From NCBI GenBank assembly GCA_001897475.1, contig MKSY01000014.1, forward strand, positions 25,523 through 89,522: a stretch of 64,000 bases of DNA. The letters are read 5' to 3'. The notes under the pieces were generated by a model, which did not search any database, was not told the origin of the DNA, and saw only the letters and a program-made list of their open reading frames with translations. Both the position numbers and the translations under genes were made by a program. The stretch comes from Alphaproteobacteria bacterium 43-37. Its GTDB lineage: Bacteria > Pseudomonadota > Alphaproteobacteria > 43-37. Position 1 is the first letter of the stretch, and each line of letters begins with the position of its first letter. Positions 17,775 through 17,985 of this stretch are shown here, in pieces.

Positions 17775-17850
17775 TTTTTATTCTCCTACTTGGAAATAAA
17801 TTTAACTACCTGTATTTTTGTGATCTCAATACAAGATCACGTGAATACGA

Positions 17851-17867
17851 TGCAATTAATATGCCAA
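17851..17867 (-). promoter_or_regulatory. Sigma-54 (RpoN) type promoter for flagellin copy 1
   Basis: The minus strand reads TGGCAT-ATTAA-TTGCA. This matches the -24 GG / -12 GC consensus with exact 10-nt spacing. Predicted start is about 65 nt upstream of the ATG at 17774. Confidence 0.55.
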
Positions 17868-17926
17868 AATTTTGGTCTATGAATTTGTGGGTTTTTTGAA
17901 ATGATTATTGAAGGGTGTAATGGAAT

Positions 17927-17985
17927 GGGAAAAATTTTCCCAGCAAGCAGGCATCATTTGCCGACTCGGCAGGAAAAAATTTCCC
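17927..17985. promoter_or_regulatory. Three palindromes 60-130 bp upstream of the sigma-54 promoter: candidate enhancer (bEBP) sites
   Basis: gggaaaaattttccc (17927-17941), tgccgactcggca (17959-17971) and ggaaaaaatttccc (17972-17985). The two A/T-centred palindromes are near-identical and about 45 bp apart. Confidence 0.4.

Follow-up and report, generated by a model that had tools for sequence, protein, structure and literature searches.

All six flagellin genes of Caulobacter depend on RpoN and FlbD, and they are further controlled through the 5' untranslated region (5' UTR) by FlbT (PMC3930126). The FlbD site of C. crescentus, known as ftr, has been given as CCCGGCAxxxxxTGCCGGG (as quoted by Rajeev et al., PMC3333781), and that of the D. 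vulgaris FlbD homologue DVU1063 as GGCAxxxxTGCC (PMC3333781). Here we analysed the region upstream of the downstream one of two tandem flagellin genes (copy 1) in a 64,000-nucleotide stretch of DNA from Alphaproteobacteria bacterium 43-37 (assembly GCA_001897475.1, contig MKSY01000014.1, positions 25,523 to 89,522), which is called the window below. Its G+C content is about 43%, and the same DNA is also present in the metagenome-assembled genome GCA_017308305.1 and in contigs with the label Alphaproteobacteria_43_37_sp001897475, a species that NCBI places among the unclassified Alphaproteobacteria. Flagellin control is split in some genera: Vibrio flaA uses sigma-54 and the other Vibrio flagellins sigma-28, and in Helicobacter and Campylobacter flaB uses sigma-54 and flaA sigma-28. 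Campylobacter FlgR has been reported as not needing enhancer DNA. In NtrC-type enhancers such as that of glnAp2, multiple dyad sites nucleate the activator oligomer, and the NtrC site reads TGCACC-N5-GGTGCA. Our results suggest that copy 1 is probably transcribed from a sigma-54 promoter which an FlbD-type enhancer-binding protein would activate from a tripartite enhancer.

The region was compared among four lineages. Lineage A is the window, lineage B comprises the contigs L004 and L007, lineage C comprises L005 and L006, and lineage D is the more distant L008 (57% identity). The contigs of lineages B, C and D were obtained by exact-protein look-ups of the closest flagellin homologues. At four-fold degenerate sites of the flagellin genes, lineage A was 43-51% identical to lineages B and C, so unconstrained sequence is near saturation; lineages B and C were 55% identical to each other. 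The spacer between the two flagellin copies is 330 bp, and the genes and the putative promoter lie as follows:

18105-18929, minus strand: flagellin copy 2 (274 aa), with Pfam Flagellin_N and Flagellin_C domains and without a sigma-54 promoter
16950-17774, minus strand: flagellin copy 1 (274 aa), with Pfam Flagellin_N and Flagellin_C domains, the gene behind the putative sigma-54 promoter
17851-17868, minus strand: putative sigma-54 (-24/-12) promoter block TTTGGCATATTAATTGCA, an exact match to TGGCAY-N5-TTGCW and an invariant run of 18 nt

The element TGGCATATTAATTGCA (TGGCAT-ATTAA-TTGCA, minus strand) stands 77 nt upstream of flagellin copy 1 and has no mismatch to the consensus TGGCAY-N5-TTGCW. 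A previous reading of this DNA from its letters alone (the sequence-only reading) had named an exact -24/-12 RpoN motif here; the motif is present, and its span is 17866-17851 rather than ending at 17867. The GG at 17865-17864 and the GC at 17853-17852 are separated by a 10-nt gap, which is the correct sigma-54 spacing. Only two exact matches to the consensus were found on both strands of the 64 kb, against 0.37 expected, and none of the one-mismatch matches in the window is intergenic with both GG and GC intact. The second exact match, TGGCATCATGATTGCT (54545-54560, minus strand), is antisense within a 340-aa open reading frame (ORF) without a Pfam match, stands about 790 bp upstream of a D-Ala-D-Ala carboxypeptidase gene and is probably due to chance.

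When the intergenic regions of lineages A, B and C were aligned, TTTGGCATATTAATTGCA (18 nt) was the longest invariant run, and the 60 bp directly upstream of it were almost unalignable. The flagellin of L008 is preceded by TGGCATGAAAATTGCA, in which TGGCAT and TTGCA are kept and the N5 spacer is different. Kept contact bases with a changed spacer are the pattern expected of a working RpoN promoter. The proposal of a sigma-54 promoter for copy 1 is thus backed both by its invariance in three lineages and by its recurrence with another spacer in L008. Other promoter classes gave no comparable signal. The best matches to the sigma-28 consensus TAAA-N15-GCCGATAA upstream of copies 1 and 2 had 3-5 mismatches in 12 positions and were unconserved or lay on the ribosome-binding site (RBS), the CtrA box TTAA-N7-TTAA had no exact match upstream of either flagellin, and a sigma-70 scan returned nothing convincing for either flagellin and no competing signal in the spacer between the two copies. 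From the observed elements, their geometry and their conservation, we infer that copy 1 uses sigma-54 (RpoN).

Upstream of this promoter, three palindromes had been reported by the sequence-only reading. All of them are present on the plus strand: GGGAAAAATTTTCCC at 17927-17941 (perfect, 7+1+7), TGCCGACTCGGCA at 17959-17971 (perfect, 6+1+6) and GGAAAAAATTTCCC at 17972-17985 (imperfect). Comparison among the lineages replaced them with a partly different set of elements, whose centres are counted from the predicted +1 at 17840:

17928-17940, minus strand: proximal dyad GGAAAATTTTTCC, centre about -94, the core of the 15-bp palindrome 17927-17941
17950-17962, minus strand: central dyad GGCAAATGATGCC, centre about -116, an ftr-like GGCA-N5-TGCC
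17972-17984, minus strand: distal dyad GGAAATTTTTTCC, centre about -138
17959-17971, minus strand: middle palindrome TGCCGAGTCGGCA, found in the window only, its 3' arm overlapping the ftr-like dyad

In place of TGCCGAGTCGGCA, the contigs L004-L007 read TATCACATCGGCA and CATTAGATCGGCA. The middle palindrome is thus unconserved and is probably not a functional unit by itself. Upstream activator sites before copy 1 had been predicted, and conserved dyads do exist there, with the overlapping GGCA-N5-TGCC taking the place of the middle palindrome. The proximal dyad reads GGTAAATCTTGCC in lineage B and GGTAAATTTTTCC in lineage C, where GGnA-N5-TnCC is kept. Counterparts of the central dyad are GGCAAATCGTGCC (B), GGCAAATCATGCC (C) and CGGCAGAAATTGCCG (L008). 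The distal dyad is identical in lineage B and reads GGAAATTTCTTCC in lineage C.

All three elements fit one 13-bp dyad, GGnA-N5-TnCC. Among ten instances of it (three in each of the lineages A, B and C, and one in L008, at -86), G1, G2, A4, T10, C12 and C13 are invariant, and differences occur at position 3 and at its mirror, position 11. The dyads are centred as follows:

Lineage A (window): distal -138, central -116, proximal -94
Lineage B: distal -140, central -118, proximal -96
Lineage C: distal -141, central -119, proximal -97

The spacing from dyad to dyad is exactly 22 bp in all three lineages, and the distance to the promoter drifts by 2-3 bp. In L008, CGGCAGAAATTGCCG lies at -86, within the 3' end of the upstream coding region. 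The motif GGNAANNNTTNCC has exactly two matches in the window, both in the enhancer region of copy 1. The looser GGNANNNNNTNCC has 12 matches in the 64 kb, three of which form the 22/22-bp trio at 17928, 17950 and 17972. Conservation of the two A/T-rich palindromes lies mainly at the outer GGnA/TnCC positions and not in A-tracts. Looping assisted by A-tracts, as had been suggested, is not favoured: the proximal dyad of lineage B, GGTAAATCTTGCC, has lost its A-tract and yet keeps the dyad positions and the register, which favours protein recognition over curvature. Small opposite-strand ORFs over the enhancer (L002 2688-2855, L004 891-1031) were rejected as genes, as frame-breaking indels distinguish the lineages there and the conservation is block-like, not codon-like.

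The central dyad GGCA-N5-TGCC is the FlbD ftr core with Caulobacter spacing, and this core is present in all relatives. The dyads stand at enhancer distance (about 80-150 bp) from the putative sigma-54 promoter of a flagellin: in the window their centres are -94, -116 and -138, and the dyad of L008 lies at -86. Because the central dyad matches the FlbD core, L008 has the fuller CGGCAGAAATTGCCG, and the Caulobacter flagellins are RpoN- and FlbD-dependent, we read the region upstream of copy 1 as a putative ftr-type enhancer. An activator of the FlbD or FleQ/FleR type had been envisaged for this promoter; the match to the ftr core speaks for FlbD, and FleQ/FleR found no sequence support.

The C(-12) at 17852 puts the predicted +1 at about 17840, which is the first base of an inverted repeat. 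A 21-bp inverted repeat over the predicted transcript start had been noted before; it exists, 3 nt away from the 17817-17837 then given. The leader of copy 1 contains the following elements:

17820-17840, minus strand: inverted repeat GTGATCT-N7-AGATCAC, beginning at the predicted +1
17781-17815, minus strand: conserved 5' UTR blocks ATACAGGTAGTTAA (17815-17802) and TTTCCAAGTAGGAGAA (17796-17781), with invariant runs of 14 nt and of 6+9 nt

Folding of the 66-nt leader RNA gave a 5'-terminal stem-loop and a small hairpin, UCC-AAGUA-GGA, partly over the Shine-Dalgarno sequence (z = -2.9, lineage A). The inverted repeat at 17840-17820 probably forms this 5'-terminal stem-loop of the mRNA, as judged from the predicted fold. 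In lineages B and C the corresponding hairpin is shorter and has a TGAT...ATCA core, and across the three lineages no pair of the +1 hairpin has a compensating change on both sides. The small hairpin is formed by the second leader block, TTTCCAAGTAGGAGAA. Both leader blocks contain an RGUAG motif (ACAGGUAGU and CAAGUAGGA in the window), and the second copy makes up the loop and the 3' arm of the small hairpin over the Shine-Dalgarno sequence. The leader of L008 (about 1120-1157) has RGUAG copies as well, GCAAGUAGC and CAUGUAGGA. By analogy with FlbT in Caulobacter, a translational regulator may act at the leader blocks, and the two RGUAG copies could make up a dual site for such a protein. The window showed no homologue of FlbT or FlaF, and an Rfam search of 16800-19200 returned no family at E <= 1.

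Two hairpins border copy 1, which is followed by fliD and fliS:

18056-18079, minus strand: hairpin GCGGGAGAG-TTTTTT-CTCTCCCGT after the stop codon of copy 2, its stem kept through sequence changes in lineages B and C
16913-16936, minus strand: hairpin CCATGAGGGG-ATAG-CCCCCTCATG between the copy 1 stop codon and fliD, strong and G+C-rich with 9-10 bp, its T-run displaced
16885-15137, minus strand: fliD, after flagellin copy 1
15113-14685, minus strand: fliS, after fliD

The first hairpin is probably a terminator that separates the two flagellin transcripts. Since this conserved hairpin follows the stop codon of copy 2, copy 1 would need its own promoter. The second is probably a partial or leaky terminator, so placed that fliD-fliS would be expressed by read-through, and it would set the ratio of flagellin to FliD/FliS.

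Based on these results, we propose the following mechanism. The sigma-54 promoter at 17866-17851 would drive copy 1, and probably also fliD-fliS behind it, from a start near 17840. An FlbD-type enhancer-binding protein would activate the promoter from the three upstream dyads, which would lie on one face of the DNA because the step from one to the next is exactly 22 bp, or about two helical turns. The canonical central ftr dyad may nucleate binding and the weaker flanking GGAA-N5-TTCC dyads may complete the assembly, and three dimers bound in register would form an activator hexamer that contacts the sigma-54 holoenzyme by looping. The transcript would begin with the 5'-terminal stem-loop and continue into the conserved leader that partly occludes the RBS; this leader structure suggests an additional post-transcriptional control. 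Copy 2, ending in its own putative terminator hairpin, would have lost the -24/-12 element and be expressed in another way. The start site, the identity of the activator and the assembly of three dimers are what we infer from the arrangement of the DNA.

Several observations weigh against this mechanism. The CCC/GGG flanks of ftr are absent in lineages A, B and C and only partly present in L008 (CGGCA...TGCCGG), and in the flanking dyads each half-site departs from GGCA/TGCC by one base, so that these dyads might bind a different protein. No consensus site of integration host factor (IHF), WATCAANNNNTTR with at most one mismatch, was found between -95 and -27 in any lineage. Gober and Shapiro are said to have described an IHF-assisted Caulobacter flagellar promoter in 1992; an IHF site is an accessory, non-defining feature of FlbD/ftr-type enhancers. 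The comparison comprises four lineages, two of which are mutually close. Neither rpoN nor a gene for a Sigma54_activat-domain protein was found in the 64-kb window (Pfam, 40 window proteins) or in its 10-kb flanks, about 84 kb altogether (the flanks were searched in gene tables). An organism without rpoN or a flagellar activator is nevertheless unlikely, because selection is visible on the -24/-12 bases.

These absences would fit a rival view, in which TGGCAT-N5-TTGCA is a conserved operator or RNA element and not a sigma-54 promoter, and copy 1 is expressed either by read-through from copy 2 or by a promoter that went unrecognised, for example in an organism without rpoN. That the entire 16-mer is invariant in lineages A, B and C, even in its normally free spacer, could also indicate another ligand. 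However, L008 keeps exactly the sigma-54 contact bases and differs in the spacer, a conserved terminator-like hairpin stands between copy 2 and copy 1, an ftr-like dyad lies at enhancer distance in four of four lineages, no other promoter consensus occurs in the region, and the absence of genes from 84 kb of a genome says little. We regard this view as very improbable. A less radical alternative keeps the sigma-54 promoter and places an FlbD-like protein on the central dyad only. The flanking A/T dyads would then be sites for another protein, either a second regulator that represses or co-activates or a nucleoid protein, or they would act as in-phase intrinsic bends that replace IHF. It would account for the third base of each half-site, where the flanking dyads deviate from the ftr core, for their AnTn tracts 44 bp apart in lineage A, for the spacer without an IHF consensus, and for L008, which has a clear dyad of the central type and no A/T dyads. 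In lineages B and C, on the other hand, the proximal dyad (GGTAAATCTTGCC) has lost its A-tract character and keeps GGnA-N5-TnCC in the exact 22-bp register, which fits one dyad-reading protein better than curvature, and one half of that site is TGCC, the ftr half-site. We therefore consider binding at the central dyad alone to be rather unlikely.

Similarly, the inverted repeat at 17840-17820 could be a DNA operator rather than an RNA stem-loop, at which a dimeric repressor would block open-complex formation or elongation. Its overlap with the predicted start would suit such a role, as would the TGAT...ATCA core that is invariant in lineages A, B and C and the lack of any two-sided compensating change. 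Yet the loop and stem differ in length (a 7-bp stem with a 7-nt loop in lineage A, a shorter hairpin with a 4-nt deletion in lineages B and C), so that the spacing of half-sites would change; the outermost stem pair in lineage C is U-G, which is possible in RNA and not in duplex DNA; and the leaders of L008 and of copy 2 carry unrelated hairpins at comparable positions. An operator at this place is doubtful, and the stem-loop in the RNA is preferred.

We also looked at candidates for the activator in the window. A SenC/SCO1 gene (minus strand) is divergent from genes for a histidine kinase and a 181-aa response regulator with a REC domain and a Fis-type helix-turn-helix (HTH) domain (plus strand; 20424-23008 for the whole group). 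This REC and HTH_8 protein (22463-23008) has no AAA+ domain and is for that reason not the sigma-54 activator; with its kinase and SenC neighbours it looks like the RegB/RegA (PrrBA)-SenC redox arrangement. Two proteins of about 500 aa (23005-24483 and 48912-50426, both minus strand) gave only weak, generic AAA matches (PF00004) and no Sigma54_activat match, and were rejected as activators. They may be paralogs of an uncharacterised ATPase family.

Copy 2 shares the RBS tccaagtaggagaataaaaaATG with copy 1. Identical first codons had also been claimed, and here the second codon differs (ACA versus GCA). The claim that copy 2 lacks a sigma-54 match proved right: no GG-N10-GC core with fewer than 5 consensus mismatches occurs in the 320 bp upstream in any lineage. 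No sigma-28, CtrA or clear sigma-70 signal was found upstream of copy 2 in any lineage either. Two features lie upstream of it:

20314-19049, minus strand: polyhydroxybutyrate (PHB)-depolymerase gene, the first of the minus-strand series
18930-19048, minus strand: upstream region of copy 2, with two conserved sense-strand hairpins and a promoter-like stretch, TTGACAAAATTGCG

In the two conserved hairpins (about 19033-18997 and 18994-18978), several pairs are G-U, and some changes affect one side only, such as C-G to U-G and A-U to G-U. Because such pairing is possible in RNA of the sense strand alone, the stretch right behind the stop codon of the PHB-depolymerase gene is probably transcribed, and the transcription would therefore come either by read-through from the PHB-depolymerase gene or from a promoter inside that gene. 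The suggestion that copy 2 may be read through from elsewhere gains some support from these hairpins. The hairpin at 18978-18994 also scores as a plus-strand intrinsic terminator (hairpin and TTTTT), antisense to flagellin.

Lineage D has a single flagellin directly after the PHB-depolymerase gene, and its sigma-54 promoter and ftr site are embedded in the 3' end of that gene. The leader of copy 2 aligns in part with the sigma-54-driven leader of L008, which has a hairpin at the matching position. Where L008 has TGGCATGAAAATTGCA, the window is aligned with TTGACAAAATTGCG, which looks like a decayed promoter and suggests that the promoter was lost after duplication. In lineages B and C, a GGCA-N5-TGCC dyad lies inside the PHB-depolymerase gene 431 bp upstream of the copy 2 start (L005 2397-2409, L007 316-328). 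It has the same position in both and is absent from the window; it could be due to coding-sequence conservation or be a relic enhancer.

Between the two flagellin paralogs of lineage A, identity is 87% at the protein level and 74% at four-fold sites; within lineages B and C, the paralogs reach only 73-75% at the protein level. The 74% of the paralogs, set against the 43-51% of orthologues between lineages, suggests that in lineage A the two coding regions have undergone gene conversion, with the upstream regions staying distinct. As a tentative, more speculative synthesis, promoter turnover may have followed the tandem duplication, so that copy 2 lost its -24/-12 element and now depends on read-through from a metabolic gene, and copy 1 may carry a rigid, 22-bp-phased enhancer of three dyads, in which a canonical ftr between two degenerate sites would template a hexamer from three DNA-bound dimers.

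Two scans of reference genome contigs, the first using the single protein and the other the family alignment, found no relatives of this flagellin. A scan of metagenome contigs found no family member and only two distant flagellins (33-39% identity). In the protein alignment, the flagellin family carries GLRVARAQDDAAS, at a position where most flagellins are expected to have a motif like GLRINSAKDDAAG. Outside the family, the nearest homologues have about 36-40% identity and bear the annotations Planctomycetota, Bdellovibrio and Clostridia, not Alphaproteobacteria. After fliS, the window has two ORFs of 271 aa and 116 aa without a Pfam match (13328-14503, minus strand). In the gene table of the lineage B contig, a coproporphyrinogen oxidase gene directly follows fliS, which argues that the two ORFs, at the end of the flagellin cluster, are an insertion specific to the lineage. 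Some 2-4 kb outside the window, to its left, lie a HipA-type toxin gene and its HTH/DUF1488 partner (L014/L015 6243-7888).

In conclusion, the copy 1 promoter is an ordinary, cleanly documented example of a known scheme for switching on flagellin, and it opens no new question in flagellar regulation. It extends the Caulobacter style of sigma-54/FlbD/ftr flagellin control to an uncultured, unclassified lineage of Alphaproteobacteria that has a low G+C content and comes from the metagenome of a bioreactor. It also offers a compact enhancer design with three dyads in a fixed 22-bp register, and a natural pair of near-identical flagellin genes with different promoters. Of modest interest are the rigid arrangement of the three dyads and the difference in promoters between two flagellin paralogs that stand in tandem and are partly homogenised. 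For annotation, conserved and incidental palindromes could be told apart.

Compared with known systems, the locus shares with NtrC-type glnAp2 several dyads on one helical face at about -100 to -140, which would nucleate an AAA+ hexamer. The recognition sequence is different, and here three sites stand at 22 bp, only one of them canonical. As in Vibrio, Helicobacter and Campylobacter, flagellin paralogs of one organism are under different promoter types, one of them sigma-54. Unlike in those genera, the second paralog here has no sigma-28 consensus, the genes are in tandem, and the activator site is FlbD-like, not of the FlrC type. The locus also resembles the class III/IV flagellar promoters of Caulobacter (fljK, fljL): an alphaproteobacterial flagellin with a -24/-12 promoter (PMC3930126, PMC3333781), an inverted-repeat enhancer with the core GGCA-N5-TGCC about 90-140 bp upstream, a conserved and structured flagellin leader, and no sigma-28 signal. 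In contrast to Caulobacter, the CCC/GGG flanks of ftr and the IHF consensus are missing, only the central of three dyads is canonical, the dyads keep a rigid 22-bp register, the G+C content of the genome is about 43%, and only one of two tandem flagellins has a sigma-54 promoter, where all six Caulobacter flagellin genes are RpoN-dependent. DVU1063 of Desulfovibrio vulgaris belongs to a different phylum and its spacer is printed with four x, but this FlbD homologue uses the same GGCA...TGCC dyad, upstream of sigma-54 flagellar genes, outside Caulobacter (PMC3333781). This shows that the GGCA...TGCC motif goes together with the FlbD protein family.

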